DNA from: Verrucomicrobiia bacterium
GTDB lineage: Bacteria > Verrucomicrobiota > Verrucomicrobiia > Limisphaerales > UBA1100
NCBI GenBank assembly: GCA_014239365.1
Contig: JAAZZB010000033.1
Span: 10,669-74,668 of the forward strand
Length of the DNA stretch: 64,000 nt
Reading direction: 5' to 3'
Below are positions 2,548-58,845 of this stretch, piece by piece (positions within the stretch are counted from its first letter, which is position 1; the number at the start of each line of letters is the position of its first letter). Made by a program: the position numbers and the translations under genes. The notes beneath the pieces were generated by a model. It did no database searches. It saw only the letters and a list, made by a program, of their open reading frames with translations, and was not told the DNA's origin.

Positions 2548-3708
2548 TTAGCGTCCTTCACCGGGTGTGCGCGGCGTGGTCGGCCTGCCTTCGCCACCTC
2601 CTTCGCCACGGTTGCGGAGGCCTTCGAAACGCTGGCGCAATTCTTCGCGGCGTGCAGCCTCCTGCGGGTCGGTGATACGGAAACGGCTGCTGGTTTCCTC
2701 GGTAGGATTGGCGAGTTCATCCAGACGTTTTTCCACGGAGACAAACATCGCCTGGAAGTTTTCATCATTGGTGGTGCTTTTGAGGCTGGATAGGATGCTG
2801 CGTCGGCTGGTAATGGCTTCAGCGGCGAGGTTTTTGCCTTCGCCGAGCCGGGTGAGGTCGCGCACGAGCGTTCCGCGTGCACCACCGCCTCCGCGGCCAC
2901 TCATCATACTGCGCCAATCAAAGCCGCCGCCTCCACGGCGTTCGCCGCCTTCGGCGTTGCCTGCGGCACGTTCGGCATCGCGTTTGGCTTTTTCGGCGGC
3001 TTCGGTGGCCATGGATTGGAGGCCGTCCTTGAAACGATCCACCATCACTTGACCGGCGGCGGGGGATTCGTCGAGGTAATCATTGATGCGTCCCCACAGA
3101 TCATCTTTAGTGCGGTTTTCGATGTTGGCATCGTAATAGGCCGTGGCAAGGATGGGGACGGCTTGCGCTTCGAGCACTTTGGTGAGGTAATCCAACGCAC
3201 GACGATCAAGGCCGTTTTCGGTGATAAGCATTTTCTCGGCGTCATCTTTGAAGGTGGTGTCTTTATAACGAACCAAAATATCCCACAGGGCACCCACGGC
3301 GCGCATATCGAGTTGGCCGGGGATGTCGTTGGCGGCATCGGGTGGATTGCGGAGAATGTACTTGGCTGCGCCGAGCACTTTATCTTTGTAAGGATGCTCC
3401 GCGCCGTCGGCGAGTTTGGTGAGCTGGCGGTCGATGAGCGAAACTTCCACGCCAACTTGCGTTTGCCTGAGAGTGGTTACTAGAATCGCTTCGGCATCAG
3501 CACCGCCAATGCGTCCGAGGGTTTCGATAAGGCCGATGCGCAGAGAAATGGGCATAACGCGTTGGGGCTCGCCGGGGCGACCGCGTTCGCCGCCGGGGCG
3601 TCCTTCACCGCCGGGGCGTCCGCCTCCCGGACGAAAGCCGCCGCCGGGTTGGGCGGAGATGATTCCGGTGAGGGTTAGGAGAATCAGAATGTTGAGTGTG
3701 TGTTTCAT
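2548..3708 (-). CDS. Exported protein of unknown function; C-terminal module of the recurrent family, with Gly/Arg/Pro-rich low-complexity ends
   Basis: Signal peptide MKHTLNILILLTLTGIISAQ. The motifs PISLRIGLIETLGRIGG, LDRRALDYLTKVLEAQAVPILATAYYD and LTRLGEGKNLAAEAI align with the C-terminal two-thirds of the 57484..58845 and 23997..25247 products. Confidence 0.75.
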   Translation of the reverse strand: MKHTLNILILLTLTGIISAQPGGGFRPGGGRPGGEGRPGGERGRPGEPQRVMPISLRIGLIETLGRIGGADAEAILVTTLRQTQVGVEVSLIDRQLTKLADGAEHPYKDKVLGAAKYILRNPPDAANDIPGQLDMRAVGALWDILVRYKDTTFKDDAEKMLITENGLDRRALDYLTKVLEAQAVPILATAYYDANIENRTKDDLWGRINDYLDESPAAGQVMVDRFKDGLQSMATEAAEKAKRDAERAAGNAEGGERRGGGGFDWRSMMSGRGGGGARGTLVRDLTRLGEGKNLAAEAITSRRSILSSLKSTTNDENFQAMFVSVEKRLDELANPTEETSSRFRITDPQEAARREELRQRFEGLRNRGEGGGEGRPTTPRTPGEGR

Positions 3709-3747
3709 AGTTAGATTCGAGTTTTGGTTTTAGTTTGAATGGATTGA

Positions 3748-4482
3748 TTAACGCCCGCCTCGGCCTCCGCGATCGCCTCCGCGGCCTCCCCGGTCACCGC
3801 CGATTCCACGCATCATCATTCGGATGCGGTCGCCTTGGTCGCCGCCCATTTGTTCGAGCTGAACCTTTTGTTCGTCGGTCATCAACCCCATAAATTTTTC
3901 TGAACCACTGGACCAGATTTCACGCATTTTTTGGCCGCGTTCTTCCCGGGACAAATTACGATCTCTCATGATTTCGCCGATCTTCGTGCGGTTTTCTTCC
4001 CAGGATTTTGTGGCGAATGCGCGCATTTCCTCGATCTGCACGTTGGTGATGTTGAGCTGTTGACGGAAACTGGGCCGGCCAAATTCTTTGTCCATTTTTT
4101 GGTTCATAAAGTTGGCGATGGCGGGCAGTGATTCCTCGCCGGCATCCACCAAACTTTCGAAATAATGGATCACTCGCTTTTGTGATTCCACATCGGCTCC
4201 GGTCGTGCCATCGGCGGAAAGTTGGTCGATCAAATCCTGCGGATCGGTCACCACGCCGGGCACTTGCACATTGGATTCGCTGAGCATGATTGCGGCCTGC
4301 GATTTGGCCGCGGCCCGCAGATCCACCACTTCTGAGCGGAGCTTGGCCAACTCCTCGTTGTGGGTGTTTTCCTCCGTATGCTTTCGCTCTTGGATTTTGC
4401 TTTGTGAGGATGAGCTGGTGGCAAGATAGGTAACCGCCGAACTCACGATGATGGATGCGATGATGGCTATAACTGTTTTCAT
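3748..4482 (-). CDS. Membrane-anchored protein; N-terminal module of the recurrent family, ending in an RGG-type repeat
   Basis: An N-terminal TM (MKTVIAIIASIIVSSAVTYL), a coiled-coil-like segment EELAKLRSEVVDLRAA, and RVIHYFESLVDAGEESLPAIANFMNQKMDKEF. The C-terminus is GGDRGGRGGDRGGRGGR. The gene lies 39 nt upstream of 2548..3708 on the same strand. Confidence 0.75.
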   Translation of the reverse strand: MKTVIAIIASIIVSSAVTYLATSSSSQSKIQERKHTEENTHNEELAKLRSEVVDLRAAAKSQAAIMLSESNVQVPGVVTDPQDLIDQLSADGTTGADVESQKRVIHYFESLVDAGEESLPAIANFMNQKMDKEFGRPSFRQQLNITNVQIEEMRAFATKSWEENRTKIGEIMRDRNLSREERGQKMREIWSSGSEKFMGLMTDEQKVQLEQMGGDQGDRIRMMMRGIGGDRGGRGGDRGGRGGR

Positions 4483-9297: not shown

Positions 9298-9408
9298 TCA
9301 CCACAGAGGGCACTGAGGTTGGATTGGTAGGGCGGTTTCTCCGAAACCGCCTTGGCGCGCTCGGAGAGCACGCCCTACCTCTCTGTGTTCTCTGTGCCTC
9401 TGTGGTAA
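9298..9408. repeat. Composite repeat: R1 (9326-9379) nested between the two arms of an R2 hairpin
   Basis: The left R2 arm is caccacagagggcac and the right arm is ctctgtgttctctgtgcctctgtggt. Between them lies ggtagggcggtttctccgaaaccgccttggcgcgctcggagagcacgccctacc, identical to the copy at 23764-23817. Confidence 0.8.
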
Positions 9409-22273: not shown

Positions 22274-23764
22274 ATGGATTACTCCGCAATATTCACCGCG
22301 CTGTTGCCCGACCTATTTGTGGTGGTGGCATTGTTCGCGGCGCTGGGGGTGGACTACACCAAACTGCGCAGCGCGTCATTGGCCGACCGCGCGTGCGCCG
22401 CCTCACGCATTTGCGGCGTGGGGCTAGTGGGCGCATTGGTGGCATTAGCATTTCAGTTGACCGGCAGCCTCGCAGTGGACGGCCACGCGCTGGAAGTGAC
22501 CACGCACGGGCAATTGGTTTTGAACGCCGGCACGTTGGCGCTAAAGGCGCTGTTGTTTTTGCTGGGACTATTGGTGCTGCCGCTGGCGGCGCGAACAATT
22601 TCCACACCGCAAGTGAGCGAATATTTCGCGTTGTTGTTGCTGGCTACTTTGGGGATGGGTTTTATGGTGACGAGCCGCAACCTGCTCGGGGCATTCGTGG
22701 CGTTGGAGTTGGTGAGCTTGAGCCTGTACGCGCTTACGGCGCTGAATTCTGCGCAAAAGGGGTCGGCCAAATCCGCTGAAGCCGCACTTAAATATTTTAC
22801 TTATGGCGGCGTGGCGTCAGCGTTTCTTTTATTTGGCATCAGTTATTTATTTGGCGCATTGGGGCAACTGGATATTACGCAAGCCACACTGGCCGAGGCA
22901 CCGCGATTAGTGGTGGTGGCGTATTTATTTATTTTGGTGGGGCTTGGCTTCAAGCTCGCGCTCGCGCCATTTCATTTGTGGGCGCCGGATGTGTACCAAG
23001 CCGCGCCCACGCCCGCAGCGGCGTGGATTGCCAGCGGCTCAAAAATCGCCGGCGTGGCGTTGTTGCTTGCCTTGCTCGGGCCGGTTTCATTGCCCTCGGC
23101 GCATTCGGCGATCGTGCCGTTGTTGTTATTAATGGCCGTGGCCAGCATGGCGGTGGGCAACCTCGGCGCGTTGCGGCAATCCAATGTCAAACGCCTCCTC
23201 GCCTACAGCGCCATTGCCAATGCCGGATATATTTTGGTGGCCGTCGTGGCCTTCACCGATGACGGCCGTGCGGCGGCACTATTTTATGCGATCGTGTACG
23301 CCGTGGCCACGCTGGGCGCGTTCGCGGTGGTGAGTGTGTGGAACGACCGACTCGGGCGCGAAGCGCTCATCGATGATTTTCGCGGGGCGTGGAAAGCCAG
23401 CCCCGGCCTTTCGCTGGCGTTATTGGTATTTGTGCTGTCGCTCGCGGGCATTCCCCCGCTCGCGGGATTTGTTGGGAAATTTTATTTATTCTTCGCCGCC
23501 ATTCACGCCGCGCCACAAATGGAATATTGGAGTGACGGATTATATTGGCTCGTGGCCGTGGCCCTCGTCTTCAGCGTGGTGGCACTTTATTATTACCTAA
23601 AAATCCTAAAAGCCGTCTTCGTGCGCGAGGAAACCGGTGAGATGGACAACACGCCGGTAGGCTTGCCCGCCTCCGTCGCCATCCTCGTGCTTGCACTGCT
23701 GACGGTAGCACTCGGCGTCTGGCCCGAGCCGGTGGTGGAATATATTCGGTTGTATTTGTTTTAG
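22274..23764 (+). CDS. nuoN: NADH-quinone oxidoreductase subunit N
   Basis: ND2-type motifs are LELVSLSLYALTA, AALKYFTYGGVASAFLLFGISYLFG and LAPFHLWAPDVYQAAPTPAAAWI. The last base of the stop codon is the first base of repeat R1. Confidence 0.9.
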   Translation: MDYSAIFTALLPDLFVVVALFAALGVDYTKLRSASLADRACAASRICGVGLVGALVALAFQLTGSLAVDGHALEVTTHGQLVLNAGTLALKALLFLLGLLVLPLAARTISTPQVSEYFALLLLATLGMGFMVTSRNLLGAFVALELVSLSLYALTALNSAQKGSAKSAEAALKYFTYGGVASAFLLFGISYLFGALGQLDITQATLAEAPRLVVVAYLFILVGLGFKLALAPFHLWAPDVYQAAPTPAAAWIASGSKIAGVALLLALLGPVSLPSAHSAIVPLLLLMAVASMAVGNLGALRQSNVKRLLAYSAIANAGYILVAVVAFTDDGRAAALFYAIVYAVATLGAFAVVSVWNDRLGREALIDDFRGAWKASPGLSLALLVFVLSLAGIPPLAGFVGKFYLFFAAIHAAPQMEYWSDGLYWLVAVALVFSVVALYYYLKILKAVFVREETGEMDNTPVGLPASVAILVLALLTVALGVWPEPVVEYIRLYLF

Positions 23765-23873
23765 GTAGGGCGGTTTCTCCGAAACCGCCTTGGCGCGCTC
23801 GGAGAGCACGCCCTACCTTTCCTACCTTTTGCGTTATCTTTCGCTTAAAGCTCCTTCGTTCACTTCCCATTTC
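23764..23873. repeat. Left direct repeat of the island: R1 copy (23764-23817) plus a duplicated recF 3'-end segment (23841-23872)
   Basis: The R1 part is 53/54 identical to 28013-28066. tcgcttaaagctccttcgttcacttcccattt matches tcgcataacgctccttcattcacttcccattt (28069-28100) at 29 of 32 positions. A 23-nt insert separates the two parts here. Confidence 0.8.
23834..23872 (-). pseudogene. Displaced remnant of the recF 3' end (last 12 codons plus stop)
   Basis: The minus-strand reading gives KWEVNEGALSER*, against the intact recF C-terminus KWEVNEGALCER* at 28062-28100. Nothing recF-like lies upstream of it. Confidence 0.6.
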
Positions 23874-23962
23874 AACACAGTCCTGCCGTGCTGAAATAGG
23901 TGCTATCAATTAAATTGATCGGTTCTATAAATAATTCTAATAGACATTTGTGCGTTTTTCTG

Positions 23963-23990
23963 TTGACGCCCCCTTTGATCCTCGTAGGCT
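23963..23990 (+). promoter_or_regulatory. Possible sigma70-like promoter for the island operon
   Basis: TTGACG (23963-23968), a 16-nt spacer, then TAGGCT (23985-23990), in an AT-rich stretch. It lies only about 7 nt before the ATG at 23997, which would make the mRNA nearly leaderless. This is a weak call. Confidence 0.2.
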
Positions 23991-23996
23991 TTGTAA

Positions 23997-25247
23997 ATGA
24001 AGCCTGCCCACGGCCTGTTATTGACGATTGGATTTGCAGTGGGCACGGGGTTTTCGTATTGGATGCTTGCGGGTTCGGTGACACCGAATCGTTCGATTTC
24101 AGATGGGCCGGATGCGGAGGAAACTATTTCTTTAGTGGAACATCGTTCAGAGCTTCAAGCTGCGCGGGCGCGGGCTAATCGGGTGGAGGTGATCGAAACC
24201 AAAATTTTTGAATCGGTGAATGTGGGTCGATCGCCAGAAGAATTAATTGAAAATCTCAAAACGGTGGAGGCGAACAGCCCGGAATTTATTCAGCGCCGGT
24301 CAGTGCATTATTTGGAAAGCCTGGTGGATTTGGGGCCCAAGTCGGTGGGGCCGATTGGCACGTTTTTGGCAGAACGAGTGGACCGTGAATATCTGACCAC
24401 GCGTCAATCGCTTACCTTGAATGGGCGCCCTGTCAGTGCCGCCGAACAAGTTCGGCGGGCGATCAGTAATCCTTTGCCCAAGCCCAATTTGAATTTCGTT
24501 AGCCCGCCTTCATTGCGGTTGGGTTGTTTCACGGTGCTACTGCAAATCGGCGGGCCGGAAGCGGAAAAGGTGTTATTGGATGTATTGAAAAAAACCGCCA
24601 GCGGCGCGGAGGTTGCGTGGTTGGATGAGATTTTGGATCGACTCAATCCCGGCACGCACCGGGACAAAGTGCTGGAAGCCGCGCGCGCGGTGCTCAAGCT
24701 TGGAAGAGCCACGGATGAGACCAGCCTATTGGATCGGCAATCCAAACGCTATTTGCTTGCCGTGTTGATCCGGCATCGCGATCTGAGCGTGCTCACCCAT
24801 TTTCTGGCAAACCTCGTGGATGCCGAAGGCCGGTTGGATCCGTTGGCGTTCCGTTATCTGCTCGACTCCCAAGTCACGGGAGGCTTGGACACTCTGCGGG
24901 AAGTGTATCGCACGCGTATGACCGATGCCGACGAACGCCGCATAGTTCGCAGCCGACTCTTGCGTTACGTGGGCACGGAACCGGGAATGGACACCTTCTA
25001 CAAAGAGACTTTCCAAGCCGCAATAGCCGGACGCGATGGGATGACCTCGCGCGATGTGAGCACCGCCCTGTTAAGCCTCAGCTTTAGCCCCATCCCCGGC
25101 CAGCGATTATCTAACAATCCAGCCTTGATTCGCAACCGCCTCCATATAATAGATGGGTTGAAACGAATGATCAGTGATCCTCAATTGCAAAAACGAATCC
25201 ACTCCACCGAACGTACCCTGAACCGGATGCTTGAACCCAATCCATAG
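23997..25247 (+). CDS. Full-length member of the recurrent membrane-anchored family (island copy)
   Basis: An N-terminal TM, then HRSELQAARARA, RRSVHYLESLVDLGPKSVGPIGTFLAERVDREY and PPSLRLGCFTVLLQIGGPEAEKVLLDVLKKT. It is collinear with the 57484..58845 product. Confidence 0.75.
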   Translation: MKPAHGLLLTIGFAVGTGFSYWMLAGSVTPNRSISDGPDAEETISLVEHRSELQAARARANRVEVIETKIFESVNVGRSPEELIENLKTVEANSPEFIQRRSVHYLESLVDLGPKSVGPIGTFLAERVDREYLTTRQSLTLNGRPVSAAEQVRRAISNPLPKPNLNFVSPPSLRLGCFTVLLQIGGPEAEKVLLDVLKKTASGAEVAWLDEILDRLNPGTHRDKVLEAARAVLKLGRATDETSLLDRQSKRYLLAVLIRHRDLSVLTHFLANLVDAEGRLDPLAFRYLLDSQVTGGLDTLREVYRTRMTDADERRIVRSRLLRYVGTEPGMDTFYKETFQAAIAGRDGMTSRDVSTALLSLSFSPIPGQRLSNNPALIRNRLHIIDGLKRMISDPQLQKRIHSTERTLNRMLEPNP

Positions 25248-25253
25248 TACATA

Positions 25254-26549
25254 ATGAAACCAAAACAAACACTCCTGAAACTTCTTCTCTTTATCCTGTT
25301 GGCTTTCCCCTCGTTGAGTTGGGCGGCGCATCAGACTGGGTCGGATCAGATGACGCTAGAATCCATCCACGGCTACTGGGCTGCGCAGGGTTCAGCGCCT
25401 GAGGACGGGGAAGTGCGATTTTCTGAGGGGAGCGCGTTCCCCGATTTCAGTGATCCGGATTGGGTTGGGCTGGATTATCCCAATTATCTGGATTGGGTTT
25501 ACGCCACGTATACTCAGGAGGGCGCAACGCTGATCGACATCACCCTTGGGTGTTGGATGAGCCAGGACTGGGAAGAATCCTATCCGAGCTACGCCGAATA
25601 TCTGGCGGCTTGCGATGAAAATGGCCGAAGAGAAACGATGCGTGAAGCGACGGCGGTTTATTTAGACAACACGACATCCGAGTACTACATAAACCAAGCA
25701 GTTGGGCAAACATTCAACCTCATTCACAATGGCGAACTGGCCACCGAACGCGAAGCCGCCGAAATCGCCGGAGCGGCTGAGGAGGGTGGCAGGGGTGGGT
25801 TGCATATTTATGTCAACGAACTTTCCTTTGGCGGGACGGATGCGCTGGGGTGGACGCAGTCCGGCGAATATCAAGGCGCAGATTTTCAAAGTGCTCAATG
25901 GGTCTCAGTGCTTACCCGTGAAGGATTGATTATGGTGGCCACCGCTGGCACCGGCACGGCGGCCTCTGCAGGATCCCGTGCAGCGTTGTACGCCAACCAA
26001 ACTCTGCTGGGATTGGATGCCTTCCGCACGGGGCAAGGGTTGGGAGATGGCCTCAACGAAATGATCGAAACAGGAGGACGATCGGGCGCGGGTACGGTGT
26101 TACTGAGTGCACTAGGAATGAGAAGGCTCCGAATGAATACTAGCTCCGCAGGAGGAACAACATTCAATAGTGCTTTGCGGGGCAACACTCGCAGATCATC
26201 AGAATTCACTACTTGGAATCAGTTTCAGGCGGGAACGAAGGGGCAATTTGCATCGAGGGGTGAAGCTGGGACAGCTTGGTCGATATACAAAAGAGCAAAC
26301 GGAATTATTACAGGAACTGTCCGCAGCTCTGCTGCAAAAAGCCAGTTTCTTCGAGAGTTGGGCAATACTGGCCAAGTGCCGAAATGGATGAATCAGTGGC
26401 TGTCAAAGGGTAAAGTCCCTCCCGGTTACCACGTTGACCACATAAAACCATTATCAACGGGAGGGCTAGACTTGCCAGCAAATATGAGGCTACAAAATAT
26501 CGATTTACATAAAACGCACCATAAATATTATCGCCCATGGGAGAAGTAA
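25254..26549 (+). CDS. Signal-peptide-bearing protein with a C-terminal HNH (beta-beta-alpha-Me) nuclease motif; candidate secreted toxin
   Basis: Signal peptide MKPKQTLLKLLLFILLAFPSLSWA. The last 45 aa or so read PPGYHVDHIKPLSTGGLDLPANMRLQNIDLHKTHH (DH...N...H pattern). A Gly/Ala/Thr-rich linker separates it from an N-terminal region with no domain I recognise. Confidence 0.65.
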   Translation: MKPKQTLLKLLLFILLAFPSLSWAAHQTGSDQMTLESIHGYWAAQGSAPEDGEVRFSEGSAFPDFSDPDWVGLDYPNYLDWVYATYTQEGATLIDITLGCWMSQDWEESYPSYAEYLAACDENGRRETMREATAVYLDNTTSEYYINQAVGQTFNLIHNGELATEREAAEIAGAAEEGGRGGLHIYVNELSFGGTDALGWTQSGEYQGADFQSAQWVSVLTREGLIMVATAGTGTAASAGSRAALYANQTLLGLDAFRTGQGLGDGLNEMIETGGRSGAGTVLLSALGMRRLRMNTSSAGGTTFNSALRGNTRRSSEFTTWNQFQAGTKGQFASRGEAGTAWSIYKRANGIITGTVRSSAAKSQFLRELGNTGQVPKWMNQWLSKGKVPPGYHVDHIKPLSTGGLDLPANMRLQNIDLHKTHHKYYRPWEK

Positions 26550-26550
26550 A

Positions 26551-26910
26551 ATGACAAAAAAAATGCTGGTAAAATATGATCCGGCGAATCCGGAAAAGTC
26601 ATCGTCTGAATTTTTATTCCCAAATCGCAATTCGGGCACGATTGCGCTGTGCAGCATTAAGAACAATGCCCCCTCGGAATTCGGATTGGTGGTTTATACT
26701 GGCAGGGATTTGTCCTCTGCCGATTTGTTTGCAAGAATCATTGAAACTGGGCATGTGATTAAATCTGTTGAACAAATGATGTGTGATCTTAAAATATTTT
26801 TGATAGAAATAAAAAATCAGAAAATCGGAAACGTGGTTGCACTCGATCAGGTGGCCATCAAAGGTGATGCCCTTCGACTACGGAGCGCAAACCTAAGGGC
26901 ATATAAGTAA
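26551..26910 (+). CDS. Small cytoplasmic protein; candidate cognate immunity protein
   Basis: 119 aa with no signal peptide. It starts 1 nt after the stop of the HNH gene (taaaATG). AT-rich, with no recognisable family. Confidence 0.45.
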   Translation: MTKKMLVKYDPANPEKSSSEFLFPNRNSGTIALCSIKNNAPSEFGLVVYTGRDLSSADLFARIIETGHVIKSVEQMMCDLKIFLIEIKNQKIGNVVALDQVAIKGDALRLRSANLRAYK

Positions 26911-26954
26911 GGGGTAAGGATCTCCTCAAATAATTAGCAAATATTTTATCACAA

Positions 26955-27422
26955 ATGACACCAATTAAATACCTGTTGACTTCCGTTGCGTTTGCATTCG
27001 TGCCGTTATATTATACTGCTGCAACTAAAGGTGAAGCAATAGATGCGCAGGTCAAGCGGCGGCAGGCTATTGAGCAATTCCAAGAGGCAGTCAATGTGAT
27101 GACTGCGGGTTTCGATACGGATGGGGATGGCCGGGTCACGCGCAAAGATGCAGACGTGAACGGTTTTCTAAGGAAGGTGGCCGCACTGCCTAATTTTGAT
27201 TGGGCTTATCCCATTACCATTGACGAGGAACTGGCAACTCTTTGGAAGAAAACCGGCCGAAAAAACAAATACCTGAAAATTATTCCCCGTGCTGAATCTG
27301 GGGGGTTTGTCGGGGGCTCGTTTAATTCACAGAGATATTATCGACCGTATAGTATTGTGCTGACAAATGAGTTGGTTAAAGTGAAAGTTGAAAAGAAAGA
27401 GTGGGAATACAAGAGTGAATAA
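26955..27422 (+). CDS. Small exported or membrane-anchored hypothetical protein with an EF-hand-like DxDxDG loop
   Basis: An N-terminal hydrophobic segment LLTSVAFAFVPLYY and the motif FDTDGDGRVTRKD. AT-rich coding region. Confidence 0.45.
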   Translation: MTPIKYLLTSVAFAFVPLYYTAATKGEAIDAQVKRRQAIEQFQEAVNVMTAGFDTDGDGRVTRKDADVNGFLRKVAALPNFDWAYPITIDEELATLWKKTGRKNKYLKIIPRAESGGFVGGSFNSQRYYRPYSIVLTNELVKVKVEKKEWEYKSE

Positions 27423-27960
27423 AATTGTATTATTTTTGATGATAGCCACGGGCGCCGGTTGCCATACTGCGCCTCAGGTGTCGGACATGGAGCTGTTCTA
27501 TCGGCACATATGGTCGCATCAGTTGTCGGATGGGATTGGGACTGTGAGGCTGCGGGATTGTCATGTGGTTTTTGTTGATCGCGGCAGGCCTGTCGATGGG
27601 CTTATTGCGCCCAGTGGTATTACGTTTGCAAGTAAGGCTACAGCAGAACGCATAAACAGCATATTTAAAAATTATCAAACAGGTCGGGAAACTTCAAAAT
27701 ATTCCGGATGCATTCCAGTTGTTTACCTTCGGTTAAGCAGGATTACTTTTGGCGCAAAAAAGCACGCGGTCCCTGGCGGGAATATAATTACCACACATCA
27801 TGCGCGATTGTATTTAACTGTGGGAATCGTGGAGGCGAAATCCGATCTATTTAAATTGCATAGACCTTCTATGCATGCTTCAAAATACGAATACATATTT
27901 TCATTGAATGGGAAGTGGCAGCCAACGTATTCCGGCCCGGAAAATGTTCCTATTCCTTAA
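27415..27960 (+). CDS. Putative lipoprotein, unknown function
   Basis: The GTG at 27415 gives VNKIVLFLMIATGAGC, a lipobox-like sequence. It overlaps the previous stop by 8 nt. The track ORF begins at 27388. Confidence 0.45.
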   Translation: MNKIVLFLMIATGAGCHTAPQVSDMELFYRHIWSHQLSDGIGTVRLRDCHVVFVDRGRPVDGLIAPSGITFASKATAERINSIFKNYQTGRETSKYSGCIPVVYLRLSRITFGAKKHAVPGGNIITTHHARLYLTVGIVEAKSDLFKLHRPSMHASKYEYIFSLNGKWQPTYSGPENVPIP

Positions 27961-28012
27961 AGGGGTCAGTTCTTACTGTTGACAACTGGCTTTATTGTGG
28001 GTTTGAGATTCG

Positions 28013-28102
28013 GGTAGGGCGATTTCTCCGAAACCGCCTTGGCGCGCTCGGAGAGCACGCCCTACCTTTCGCATAACGCTCCTTCATTCACTTCCCATTT
28101 TT
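28013..28102. repeat. Right direct repeat of the island: R1 copy (28013-28066) plus the genuine recF 3' end
   Basis: See 23764-23873. The recF stop codon (cta at 28062-28064) lies inside the CCCTACC arm of R1. Confidence 0.8.
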
Positions 28103-29138
28103 GCAATTCTTCGCCTAATTCCTCGGGCCAGTTTTGTTCGGTGCAGGTCATGAAGACTTGGCCTCGGCCTTGGGTGCATTGGTTTAGGAGGGGGAGGAAG
28201 GCTTGGCGGCGGGGGGCGTCGAGTTCGCCCATGACATCATCGATCAAGAGGATGGGCGGGGCGCCGTGGGTGGCGGCGAGGTGCTCGGCTTGGGCGAGTT
28301 TGAGGGCGATGGCGAGGGTGCGTTTTTGGCCTTCACTGGCGAAATCGGCGGCGGGTTTGTGGTTGAGCTGGAGGCTCAATTCATCGCGGTGCGGGCCGAG
28401 GAGGGTGGAGCCGAGGGCGCGCTCGCGTTCGCGCACGCGCTGGAGTTCGGCAGCGAAATCTTCTTTGACGCGGGGTTGGTATTCGACGTGCAGTTCTTCG
28501 CCATCGGGGGCGATGCGGGCGTGGGCGGCGGTGATGCGCGGGGCGAGTTCGGGCAGGAGCGCGTGGCGGTGAGCCATTATTTCGTTGCCGAGTTTTACCA
28601 TTTCGTGTGTGAAACTTTCGAGGGTGGCTTCGTCGACGGGGCGGCGTTTTAGCAATGCATTTCGGGAGCGCACGGCGCGGGTGTAGTTTTGCAAAAGGGG
28701 CAGGTATGTGGGCAGGGTTTGGGTGAGGAGAAAATCAAGGAAGCGCCGGCGGCCGCGTCCGGCGCCTTTGATGAGCTGGAGATCCTCGGTGCAAAAGGCG
28801 ACGGTGCGGAGTGTGCCGAGGTAATCGCTGAGCTTGCGGATGGGTTGTTCGTCGAGCGTGAGGCGGCGTTCGTTTTTGCTCCAATAAAGTTTGATGGCGT
28901 GGGAGGCGGTGGCGATGGCGCGTCCGCCCACGAACCATCCGGGTTGGCCGTGGCGCACCATCGCGGCGCTGCCGACGCCGCGAAAGCTGCGCAGGGTGGC
29001 GAGCAGATGAACGGCTTCGAGCAGATTGGTTTTGCCCTGCGCATTGCGGCCGAGTAGCACGTGAAAGCCCGGCCCGAAGTCGGCATCGAGCCGCCGGTAG
29101 TTTCGAAAATCCCGCAATCGCAAATGCCCCAGGTGCAC
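28062..29138 (-). CDS. recF: DNA replication and repair protein RecF
   Basis: MHLGHLRLRDFRNY...LLGRNAQGKTNLLEAV carries the Walker A motif, SEGQKRTLAIALKLA is the signature motif, and ILLIDDVMGELD is Walker B. Confidence 0.92.
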   Translation of the reverse strand: MHLGHLRLRDFRNYRRLDADFGPGFHVLLGRNAQGKTNLLEAVHLLATLRSFRGVGSAAMVRHGQPGWFVGGRAIATASHAIKLYWSKNERRLTLDEQPIRKLSDYLGTLRTVAFCTEDLQLIKGAGRGRRRFLDFLLTQTLPTYLPLLQNYTRAVRSRNALLKRRPVDEATLESFTHEMVKLGNEIMAHRHALLPELAPRITAAHARIAPDGEELHVEYQPRVKEDFAAELQRVRERERALGSTLLGPHRDELSLQLNHKPAADFASEGQKRTLAIALKLAQAEHLAATHGAPPILLIDDVMGELDAPRRQAFLPLLNQCTQGRGQVFMTCTEQNWPEELGEELQKWEVNEGALCER

Positions 29139-41674: not shown

Positions 41675-41782
41675 CCCGGGCCGATGGCCCGGGGGGTCGG
41701 TTTGTAGCCCGGGCCGGTGGCCCGGGGCCCGGACCACCGGTCCGGGCTACATTGGCGCGCTCGGAGAGCACGCCCTACCTTT
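41670..41782. repeat. Composite repeat: two tandem R5 units fused to the right half of R1
   Basis: The sequence tgtagcccgggccgatggcccgg...tgtagcccgggccggtggcccggggcccggaccaccggtccgggctaca is followed by ttggcgcgctcggagagcacgccctaccttt. Confidence 0.75.
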
Positions 41783-57483: not shown

Positions 57484-58845
57484 TTAGCGTTTGCGCGGTG
57501 CGCGGCGGGGGTCGAAGCGGCCGTCGAGTTTTTTGGCTTTTTCGGGGTCGCCCATATCTGTGAGGCGTTGGCCGACGCGGTCCATCCACACGAGTACTTC
57601 TTTGTCCTGCGTTTGCACGCGGAGGGTGGAGAGATATTGTTTGCGGGCTTGGAGGGTTTCGGCGGGTACGTTGCGTCCTTCACCGAGGCGGCCGAGATAA
57701 TATTGGACGTTGCGCAAGCCGTCGTAGCGACTGCGTTTTTGTTTGTTGGGATCGGGATCCTGAGAGGCGAGCATTTGAAAACTTTCGACCATGCGCTTGT
57801 TGATGATGATGTTGGCGTCTTCGCTGACGCCGATGTAGTTGGCGGCAATCTGCCGGATGCTGCCGCGGTTGCGGTCGTCCAAGTCGGGGTTGTCGTAAAG
57901 ATTGGCAAGGATGGGCATCGCTTTGGAGCCGAGCACGCCAGTGAGGTAGCCGAGCACGGAGCGGTCGATATACGTGACCTCAGTTTCTTTGCCATCGCGC
58001 CCGCGGCGTTTGCCGGTGCGGACGAGTTGGGTTTTGGCTTGGTCAACGAAGCGGGTGTCTTTGTGTTGGCGCAAAATATTGAAGAGCATCCCGCGGTTTT
58101 GGCGGTCGAGCGCGGAAACGTTGCGGTCTTCCTCACGGATGGGCAGTGTAAGCAAATCGCGCGTGGCGAGCAGGTACGTTTCTTTGTGCACCTCGGGCGA
58201 AAGATTCTCGAGGGCTTGGGCGATGTACGCCACTTCGACGGCGCGCCTGGTTTTTTTGAGCACGTTGAGCAGCGCGTGTTCGGCGGCGGGGATGGCGTTG
58301 GCATCGCGCTTGCCAATGTGGCGCACGGTGTTCAGCAAACCAATGCGAAGGCTGGGCGGGAAAATGGGGTCGGGATAAATCCGGCCTTCGAGCCAAACGC
58401 CTGAGATAATTTCCGGTGTATTTTCGCGATACTCGAGGTCGACATTTTGGTTAAGGAAATTTTCGATGGCCGGGAGCGCTTGTGTACCCATTGAAGTGAG
58501 CTCCTCAAACTGGCGAATGACCTGCCGCACTTGGATGCGGTGCGCGTCGGTGTTGTTCGAGCGCCGGTCTTCGGTTGAGAGGTCAATCTGCTTCAAATAT
58601 TCCAAAACTTCCCGCGCCGATCCCGTGGCCGCGCCGGGCACCACCACTTCCTGCACAATAACTTCGGGTTTGCGCGCATTGGCGGCGTTCAGTTCGGAAC
58701 GCAAACTGGCGAGTTGTTCCTTATGTTTTTGGCTGGCTGAATCCGTGCGATCTTCGCGGGCCACGGTTTTCTGGCCGGAGACGATGACGTACGTTCCCGC
58801 GATGGAGACTGTGGCGACTGCAATAATGGCGACAATAATTTTCAT
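57484..58845 (-). CDS. Full-length member of the recurrent membrane-anchored family
   Basis: 453 aa. It has a TM anchor MKIIVAIIAVATVSIAGTYVIV, a coiled-coil-like EQLASLRSELNAANA, then RQVIRQFEELTSMGTQALPAIENFLNQNVDLEY, PPSLRIGLLNTVRHIG and LGRLGEGRNVPAETL. Confidence 0.75.
   Translation of the reverse strand: MKIIVAIIAVATVSIAGTYVIVSGQKTVAREDRTDSASQKHKEQLASLRSELNAANARKPEVIVQEVVVPGAATGSAREVLEYLKQIDLSTEDRRSNNTDAHRIQVRQVIRQFEELTSMGTQALPAIENFLNQNVDLEYRENTPEIISGVWLEGRIYPDPIFPPSLRIGLLNTVRHIGKRDANAIPAAEHALLNVLKKTRRAVEVAYIAQALENLSPEVHKETYLLATRDLLTLPIREEDRNVSALDRQNRGMLFNILRQHKDTRFVDQAKTQLVRTGKRRGRDGKETEVTYIDRSVLGYLTGVLGSKAMPILANLYDNPDLDDRNRGSIRQIAANYIGVSEDANIIINKRMVESFQMLASQDPDPNKQKRSRYDGLRNVQYYLGRLGEGRNVPAETLQARKQYLSTLRVQTQDKEVLVWMDRVGQRLTDMGDPEKAKKLDGRFDPRRAPRKR

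Follow-up and report, generated by a model that had tools for sequence, protein, structure and literature searches.

A probable polymorphic-toxin/immunity module with a C-terminal HNH domain and an uncatalogued delivery region in an uncultured Limisphaerales bacterium

Introduction

A 64,000-nucleotide (nt) stretch of DNA from an uncultured Limisphaerales bacterium (Verrucomicrobiota), referred to here at its full length as the window (assembly GCA_014239365.1, contig JAAZZB010000033.1, positions 10,669 to 74,668 of the forward strand), carries two closely packed open reading frames (ORFs), one for a protein of 431 amino acids (aa) with a signal peptide-like N-terminus and an HNH nuclease motif at its C-terminus, the other for a 119-aa protein. 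The question raised by this locus is what the two genes do together and how the larger product could reach a target. An initial annotation, made from the letters alone, had suggested a candidate toxin/immunity pair with an unrecognised delivery region. Polymorphic toxins are known to include a generic Tox-HNH class as well as a trafficking class defined by Sec/'T2SS' signal peptides (PMC3482391), and lineage-specific N-terminal domains placed after the signal peptide have been described (PMC3482391 section 37; PMC4287609).

The pair is very probably a polymorphic-toxin/immunity module of this bacterium. Modules of this kind are well known, and the pair itself is no surprise to a specialist; what is new lies in the delivery part, the toxin subfamily and the immunity family, which stand outside the curated databases searched. 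With such a module, interbacterial toxin/immunity biology would reach Verrucomicrobia subdivision 3, whose members are environmentally abundant, uncultured and little studied.

The gene pair and its layout

The pair and the parts of the toxin are listed below, with positions counted from the first letter of the window.

25254-26549, + strand: toxin gene, ATG start, 431 aa; a mosaic of signal peptide, module A, linker, module B and HNH domain
25254-25325, + strand: Sec-type signal peptide, residues 1-24, with predicted cleavage after SWA, from sequence features
25341-25598, + strand: module A, residues ~30-115, a predicted small helical domain with motifs HGYW...PEDGE...EG...DPDW...W
25761-26168, + strand: module B, residues ~170-305, predicted long helices with motifs SFGGTDALGWT.S..YQG...SR and AT.GTG
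26205-26546, + strand: HNH (beta-beta-alpha-metal) toxin domain, residues 318-431, 114 aa
26551-26910, + strand: cognate immunity gene, ATG start, 119 aa, without signal peptide

Both ORFs were found where the initial annotation had placed them, and its spacing of 1 nt is confirmed, as the toxin stop TAA occupies 26547-26549 and is followed by one spacer base and the ATG of the 119-aa ORF. The N-terminus of the toxin, MKPKQTLLKLLLFILLAFPSLSWA (next residue A), appears to be arranged as a Sec signal peptide, with n-, h- and c-regions; of all 15-residue stretches, residues 7-21 are the most hydrophobic, and S-W-A comes after them. The cleavable-looking leader noticed at first reading thus seems to be laid out as expected within residues 1-24. 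The product ends in ...PPGYHVDHIKPLSTGGLDLPANMRLQNIDLHKTHHKYYRPWEK. Inspection of the 119-aa sequence revealed no hydrophobic leader. A promoter and terminator scan of 23600-28200 gave counts not above shuffled expectation and is uninformative on operon structure.

The C-terminal HNH domain

Relatives of the C-terminal domain were sought among 5.8 billion proteins, and 24 were found whose similarity to the window protein is confined to its last 111-114 residues, at 55-72% identity. The common domain forms the extreme C-terminus of all of them but the weakest match, P0025, which displays a partial, internal similarity. Their N-terminal parts differ, comprising RHS repeats with a DPxGL core, PT-HINT, Fil_haemagg_2 repeats or other signal-peptide proteins. 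The toxin domain is thus seen as a module exchanged between delivery scaffolds, and the early assignment to a polymorphic-toxin type of domain is borne out by its presence on RHS, PT-HINT and FHA scaffolds.

The domain is laid out as a four-helix N-subdomain followed by a beta-beta-alpha core at residues 391-423, with predicted catalytic residues D395, H396, N410, H419 and H422/H423. In an alignment of 22 domains, D395, H396, N410, H419 and H423 (window numbering) are invariant, so the HNH motif is not a chance match. Searched against PDB sequences, the family profile matched the HNH domain of Cas8f-HNH (E = 3e-7), then Cas9 HNH and McrA. The Pfam HNH model is touched by 22/22 family members, weakly (best E = 1e-4), and no NCBIfam model matches this subfamily. 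The AlphaFold2 (AF2) model of the domain, with a predicted local distance difference test score (pLDDT) of 86.5, consists of four helices and then the beta-beta-alpha core, with strands at 79-83 and 98-102 and a helix at 103-112 in fragment numbering. The top Foldseek matches of this model are all HNH nucleases, namely the DNases of pyocins AP41/S2 and colicins E7/E9, Cas8f-HNH and McrA (probability ~0.9-1.0), and the teneurin C-terminal toxin is likewise among the best. Profile match and predicted structure agree with the HNH assignment first made by eye: judged from sequence and model, the C-terminus of the 431-aa protein has an HNH fold with intact catalytic residues, and it would be expected to cleave DNA.

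A scan of one genome per species located the domain in 28 genomes, spread over Verrucomicrobiota, Planctomycetota, Lentisphaeria, Bacteroidota, Alphaproteobacteria, Calditrichota, Hydrogenedentota and Ignavibacteriota. In Escherichia coli, it is a rare Rhs orphan cassette, complete in 2/5426 complete genomes and left as a remnant in 2 more; its PGAP name is 'HNH endonuclease signature motif containing protein'. The C-terminal domains at L030, L031 and L035-L040, among the genome loci, form a sister group that has the HNH core only (profile positions ~40-117), without the TWNQFQ helical N-subdomain.

The probable immunity partner

The position of the 119-aa ORF had been called that of an immunity gene, and it proves to be that of a conserved cognate partner: a member of the same small-protein family is encoded within about 25 nt downstream of the domain in 19/19 comparison loci, which are all the loci with a full-length domain plus two with remnants only. 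At four loci with different delivery scaffolds, the gene lies 0-7 nt past the toxin and encodes 123-135 aa, the products being 32-35% identical to the window ORF over the full length. Homologous small ORFs (32-39% identity) follow 0-24 nt downstream at L001-L004, L012 and L010/L011 (7/7 loci), and among the 28 genome loci, 12/12 that encode the toxin domain at full length are followed, after 6-24 nt, by an ORF of the immunity family. In those of the 28 where the HNH core stands alone, such an ORF is mostly absent, suggesting that the immunity protein recognises the N-subdomain. The genetic coupling of the toxin domain with a small cytoplasmic partner is thus strict.

A profile built from five proteins (the window ORF and those of the four loci) gathered at least 276 relatives, all of ~120-140 aa, all annotated 'hypothetical' and none with a Pfam domain. 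The immunity families recorded for Tox-HNH toxins in 2012 are SUKH, SuFu and Imm14/18/24/33 (PMC3482391). Against Pfam, the family gave nothing beyond a chance-level DUF7309 (E 0.067), so none of these or other curated immunity models is matched; a PDB sequence search with the profile returned nothing significant.

Toxin domains are about 65% identical to that of the window and partner proteins about 35% identical to its 119-aa ORF, a pattern of fast-evolving inhibitors as expected for immunity proteins. The C-terminus and its partner are clearly not an invariant, housekeeping-like pair, a pattern that the initial annotation had set against its own proposal. In Bremerella cremea, a full-length toxin-domain coding sequence stands directly upstream of the immunity-family gene, and in Planctopirus ephydatiae just the last 44 toxin codons are left ahead of it, which is a classic orphan-immunity arrangement. 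The 119-aa protein would bind and neutralise the toxin.

Two tightly coupled small genes, one of them for a nuclease with defence-related McrA and Cas8f-HNH among its PDB matches, could also be read as an intracellular type II toxin-antitoxin or abortive-infection module acting on the producer's own DNA. Such a module is exceedingly improbable here, as the toxin carries a signal peptide and ~300 residues of non-catalytic modules, the antitoxin gene would lie downstream of the toxin gene and not upstream, and the homologs are cargo of RHS and contact-dependent (CDI) toxins.

The N-terminal modules A and B

A word-seeded search with the N-terminal 317 aa returned the self-match only. An exhaustive HMMER search of residues 1-317 in 1.84 billion representatives gave 57 matches, falling in two separate regions, modules A and B. 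The delivery region, said at first to be unrecognised, is indeed without a curated trafficking domain, but it resolves into two separable modules, of which module B is widespread on RHS toxins; and a Gly/Ala/Thr-rich stretch (residues 228-241), taken at first for a linker, is actually part of the conserved module B. In the AF2 model of residues 24-317, module A is confidently predicted as a small helical domain (pLDDT 71-94) and module B as long helices (pLDDT 70-89), with a disordered linker between them. Foldseek detected no relative of this model in the PDB, the best hit (E = 2.4, TREK channels) being meaningless. A Pfam scan of 37 module A and B sequences at E <= 1 found no recurring family, PT-TG, PT-VENN, PT-HINT and DUF637 included, and a Pfam scan of 9 full-length module B carriers gave no match over module B.

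Module A has four relatives only in the HMMER search, all from similar metagenomes. Its first alignment was too divergent as a search query, and with a trimmed alignment none was confirmed in 185,579 species genomes, within the limits of pattern seeding; a JGI metagenome scan yielded 3 loci. Module A is thus lineage-restricted, observed on a few Limisphaerales-like metagenome contigs.

Module B was found in ~50 proteins, 80-200 residues from the C-terminus in nearly all the full-length ones, with few exceptions. In many RHS-type fragments, it lies 13-60 residues past the last RHS DPxG motif; in other carriers it directly follows a signal peptide. One of the RHS carriers is a 2588-aa protein, and the signal-peptide carriers are small proteins. 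Elsewhere, the curated toxins WHH/Colicin-DNase, Ntox46 and Colicin_E5 follow it, and module B is therefore a pre-toxin module. The window protein itself gave no PF05593 or YD-shell match in the Pfam scan, and its sole 'DP' is in DPDW (residues 67-70), so that the RHS autoproteolysis motif is absent. Of the 28 genome loci of the HNH domain, 0/28 carry module A or B, a hidden Markov model of module B having matched none of them, and the window protein is thus a specific mosaic of independent modules.

Replacement of the cargo at a variable slot

The pair is contained in a slot whose content differs between close relatives.

25313-27389, + strand: variable slot, with other cargo in sister genomes and flanks 92-94% identical

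The gene order of the window (nuoJ-N, 415-aa gene in the sister, slot, recF, xerC, topA) recurs in the sister genome L006, of which L007 and L015 are independent assemblies. By blastn, the sister DNA is 92% identical up to 25312, that is codon 20, inside the signal peptide, and 94% identical from 27390; the 2.1 kb between 25312 and 27390 are unrelated to the sister slot at DNA level. The window as a whole has a guanine-cytosine (GC) content of 57%, whereas that of the C-terminal domain, the immunity gene and the following 155-aa ORF (d155) is 41-46%.

The sister slot (L006 9279-11024; also L007 and L015) holds three ORFs of 99, 239 and 232 aa, colinear with one intact 562-aa protein in L017 (453-2141). 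This protein combines a signal peptide with module A in two copies, a coiled coil and a HEMGH zincin-like C-terminus, and a small secreted protein is encoded downstream of it. As the split recurs in three independent assemblies, the sister allele is probably a true pseudogene rather than an artefact of assembly. Other cargos joined to module A are an unrecognised C-terminus with two membrane proteins in L016, another C-terminus in L008 and yet another in L009, so that five different ones were seen. The comparative check suggested at first annotation was made in this way: homologous N-termini carry different C-termini with different downstream genes. Toxin and immunity genes are replaced at a conserved locus, and this locus is a replacement hotspot in Limisphaerales.

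Past the module-A gene of L008, positions 1455-2991 hold a GH-E nuclease fragment (PF14410) together with an ankyrin-repeat gene and a DUF7674 gene, an arrangement that resembles a series of orphan toxin fragments with immunity genes.

A slot of this kind might also hold a decaying or non-deployed cassette, acquired by recombination and kept mainly for immunity against the toxins of neighbours. The sister allele split into three ORFs in three independent assemblies would fit this, as would the remnant-plus-immunity arrangements that are common in this HNH family and the lack of an evident outer-membrane export route. It is nonetheless quite unlikely for the window allele, which has an unbroken ORF with a start codon of its own, encodes a signal peptide and keeps every catalytic residue, and whose 90%-identity cluster has three member sequences in separate records (ENA, NCBI).

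A further reading is a secreted scavenging or extracellular nuclease with a protective intracellular inhibitor, like Anabaena NucA/NuiA or barnase/barstar, that digests environmental DNA. A signal peptide, a nuclease domain and an adjoining small cytoplasmic protein fit this too, but RHS, PT-HINT and FHA/CdiA-like contact-dependent toxins have the same domain as their terminal cargo, an RHS-type pre-toxin module precedes the HNH domain, the locus is hypervariable between near-identical genomes, and orphan immunity genes with toxin remnants are found in Planctopirus and E. coli. Such features typify conflict systems and not nutrition, and a scavenging role is very unlikely.

The upstream membrane-anchored protein

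The gene directly ahead of the toxin gene may matter for delivery.

23997-25247, + strand: 416-aa membrane-anchored protein with one N-terminal transmembrane helix, residues 7-25

The gap between its end and the toxin start is 6 nt. The protein is 90% identical at the aa level in the sister genomes, and names in the 90%-identity cluster of its gene are 'Verrucomicrobia subdivision 3' and 'Limisphaerales'. Pfam and NCBIfam gave chance-level matches only, and a PDB sequence search nothing significant. A homolog (52-90% identity) stands directly ahead of the module-A gene in all 5 locus types with a visible upstream side (window and L005; L006/L007/L015; L016; L009; L017). This conserved adjacency lends support to the possible functional link with the toxin that was hinted at in the initial annotation, yet all the cases may be one orthologous locus, and the other paralogs have no toxin-like neighbour. 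By analogy with MafA of Neisseria, the 416-aa protein is a candidate partner of the toxin.

The window contains further paralogs of this family at 57484-58845 (- strand) and 2548-4482 (- strand), the latter split into the adjacent ORFs 2548-3708 (-) and 3748-4482 (-). These two ORFs display Gly/Arg/Pro-rich low-complexity segments with PGG/RGG repeats.

Comparison with known systems

Like the window domain, Tox-HNH toxins are C-terminal swappable cargo of the classic HNH pattern (D-H...N...H) with an immunity gene directly downstream (PMC3482391), and in both cases the scaffolds are RHS, FHA, HINT or signal-peptide-only. The window subfamily differs in having no curated model in Pfam or NCBIfam, the Pfam HNH match being sub-threshold, and in its occurrence in Verrucomicrobia and Planctomycetes, which are not in the phyletic range given for Tox-HNH in 2012 (PMC3482391). 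The orphan Rhs-CT cassette of E. coli (P0011; NZ_CP116067, L014) bears a domain 64% identical to that of the window; its partner ORF, of 120 aa and overlapping the toxin stop, was likened to the window ORF by size and position alone.

At the level of the system, the closest analogue is the MafA-MafB-MafI system of Neisseria, and the resemblance is in organisation only, with no homology. In both, a gene for an envelope-anchored protein is followed by those for a signal-peptide toxin and an immunity protein, and both loci are included in a genomic island. MafB also combines a Sec signal peptide with a lineage-restricted, repeat-free N-domain and a variable C-terminal toxin, its C-termini being partly common to Rhs/Cdi toxins (PMC4287609; PMC3482391). 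Its secretion needs the signal peptide and not MafA, the deletion of which does not block it (PMC4287609; PMC3482391). The window protein has no match to MAFB-N/DUF1020 (PF06255) in Pfam at E <= 1, module A being an unrelated helical domain. Other differences are that the upstream protein has a transmembrane anchor, whereas MafA is a lipoprotein, that module A differs markedly from strain to strain, unlike the constant MafB-N, and that there is one locus per genome fragment, with no orphan-cassette array in the window.

Colicins E7/E9 and pyocins S2/AP41 are the best structural matches (TM 0.40-0.44, root mean square deviation 2.6-3.7 A over ~80 residues, probability ~1), and they share with the window pair an HNH DNase and a small immunity protein encoded just downstream. 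Sequence identity to the window domain is however 16-22%, and neither Colicin-DNase (PF12639) nor Colicin_Pyocin immunity was matched in Pfam by the window toxin or its partner, so the likeness is structural only. Colicins have no signal peptide and possess receptor-binding and Tol/Ton translocation domains, which are absent from the window toxin.

The closest solved sequence relative is the HNH domain of Cas8f in the type I-F_HNH Cascade (PDB 8ydb, 8w1p, 9sjn; E = 3e-7), with which the alignment reads ...PxGYxVxHIxPLSxGGxDxxxNMxLL.I..H....H..Y..W and ends at the extreme C-terminus. Unlike the window protein, Cas8f-HNH is a subunit of an RNA-guided effector and not a secreted toxin, and the ~46-residue core alone aligns.

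Proposed mechanism and weight of the evidence

As a polymorphic-toxin/immunity module, the pair could work as follows. The Sec signal peptide is predicted to take the 431-aa toxin to the periplasm, where module A would probably retain or present it at the envelope of the producer, possibly via the 416-aa protein, by analogy with what has been proposed for MafB-N and MafA. Module B would most likely help the nuclease into the target cell, for instance across the inner membrane. There, the last 114 residues are expected to act as a nuclease, in which H396 would serve as the general base, D395 and H419 would bind the metal and N410 would brace the hairpin. This nuclease may kill the competitor by cutting its DNA, while in the producer and its kin the 119-aa cytoplasmic protein would bind and block the enzyme. 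Recombination between the signal-peptide codons and the junction at ~27390 would swap the whole mature toxin together with its immunity gene.

Several points weigh against this account. Nuclease activity, toxicity, neutralisation and secretion are all predicted properties, and no outer-membrane export route was identified. The window protein scores 13.2-15.8 bits with Pfam PF01844, below the gathering score of 21.4 bits, and the Foldseek E-values of the HNH model are modest (0.02-0.1). Modules A and B lack both a Pfam model and a structural relative, and module A diverges (46-49% identity) between genomes with 90-98% identical flanks. The broken sister allele indicates that the slot can decay. 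On the side of the 416-aa gene, the possible descent of all adjacency cases from one orthologous locus, by conserved synteny, and the paralogs without a toxin-like neighbour count in the same direction.

It is possible, although doubtful, that the 4.2-kb block around the pair is an undescribed Maf-like, Sec-dependent delivery system of Limisphaerales, in which the 416-aa protein would hold or release toxins via module A, and module B, which RHS toxins of many phyla have too, would be a general translocation domain taking nuclease cargo across the inner membrane of the target cell. The most useful lead is module B, a bridge between signal-peptide-only and RHS toxins, and the possible Maf-like partnership is worthwhile as well. 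In many RHS toxins, module B is the start of the fragment released by autoproteolysis, and it precedes several nuclease cargos, which makes it a candidate for the unsolved step of inner-membrane crossing. Three families are defined here beyond Pfam and NCBIfam, namely the HNH toxin subfamily, which extends over more than 8 phyla and E. coli Rhs loci, the immunity family (at least 276 members) and module B, and the toxin-immunity pair itself represents a compact, testable nuclease-inhibitor pair.

Flanking repeats and neighbouring ORFs

The 4.2-kb block, from the 416-aa gene through a 190-aa ORF (d190), is bounded by direct repeats and includes two further ORFs downstream of the pair.

23764-23872, no strand: left direct-repeat copy, ~110 nt, made of a GC-rich hairpin of 54-58 nt and a 38-nt copy of the recF 3' end
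28013-28100, no strand: right direct-repeat copy, overlapping the recF 3' end (recF = 28062-29138, - strand)
26955-27422, + strand: d155, 155-aa ORF with a hydrophobic N-terminus and one EF-hand/dockerin-like DxDxDG loop (DTDGDGRVT)
27388-27960, + strand: d190, 190-aa lipoprotein-like ORF with a lipobox-like LFLMIATGAGC, GC 44.5%

The hairpin element, GGTAGGGCGGTTTCTCCGAAACCGCC..GGCGCGCTCGGAGAGCACGCCCTACC, occurs at 9326-9379, 23764-23817, 28013-28066 and 41764-41779. Two of these copies are exact, another has one mismatch and another is a half copy, and all are found immediately 3' of a gene end. The element resembles a dispersed repeat of REP (repetitive extragenic palindromic) or terminator type, and an Rfam scan of 23500-28300, which covers two of the copies, gave no match. 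A role as an island-specific att site was rejected, as the core occurs at 9326 and 41764 too. A further 38 nt are common to 23835-23872 and 28063-28100 (89% identity), the right copy being the 3' coding end of recF. This duplication is the sole part of the repeat specific to the 4.2-kb block, which therefore looks like an insertion between nuoN and recF in the course of which the recF end was duplicated. In the sister L006, the hairpin repeat is detectable at both positions and the 38-nt part at one only.

Neither d155 nor d190 gave more than chance-level matches in Pfam and NCBIfam, and d155 nothing significant against PDB sequences. The last 11 codons of d155 are identical at 10/11 positions, at protein level, to the end of the sister zincin ORF, so d155 is chimeric and marks the right-hand recombination junction. 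For d190, a function as the retained immunity gene of the displaced zincin toxin was considered and dropped, since it is unlike the gene that follows the intact zincin toxin in L017. Although without a called gene there, d190 is 98% identical in the sister genome, and it is therefore outside the variable slot, yet inside the repeat-bounded block.

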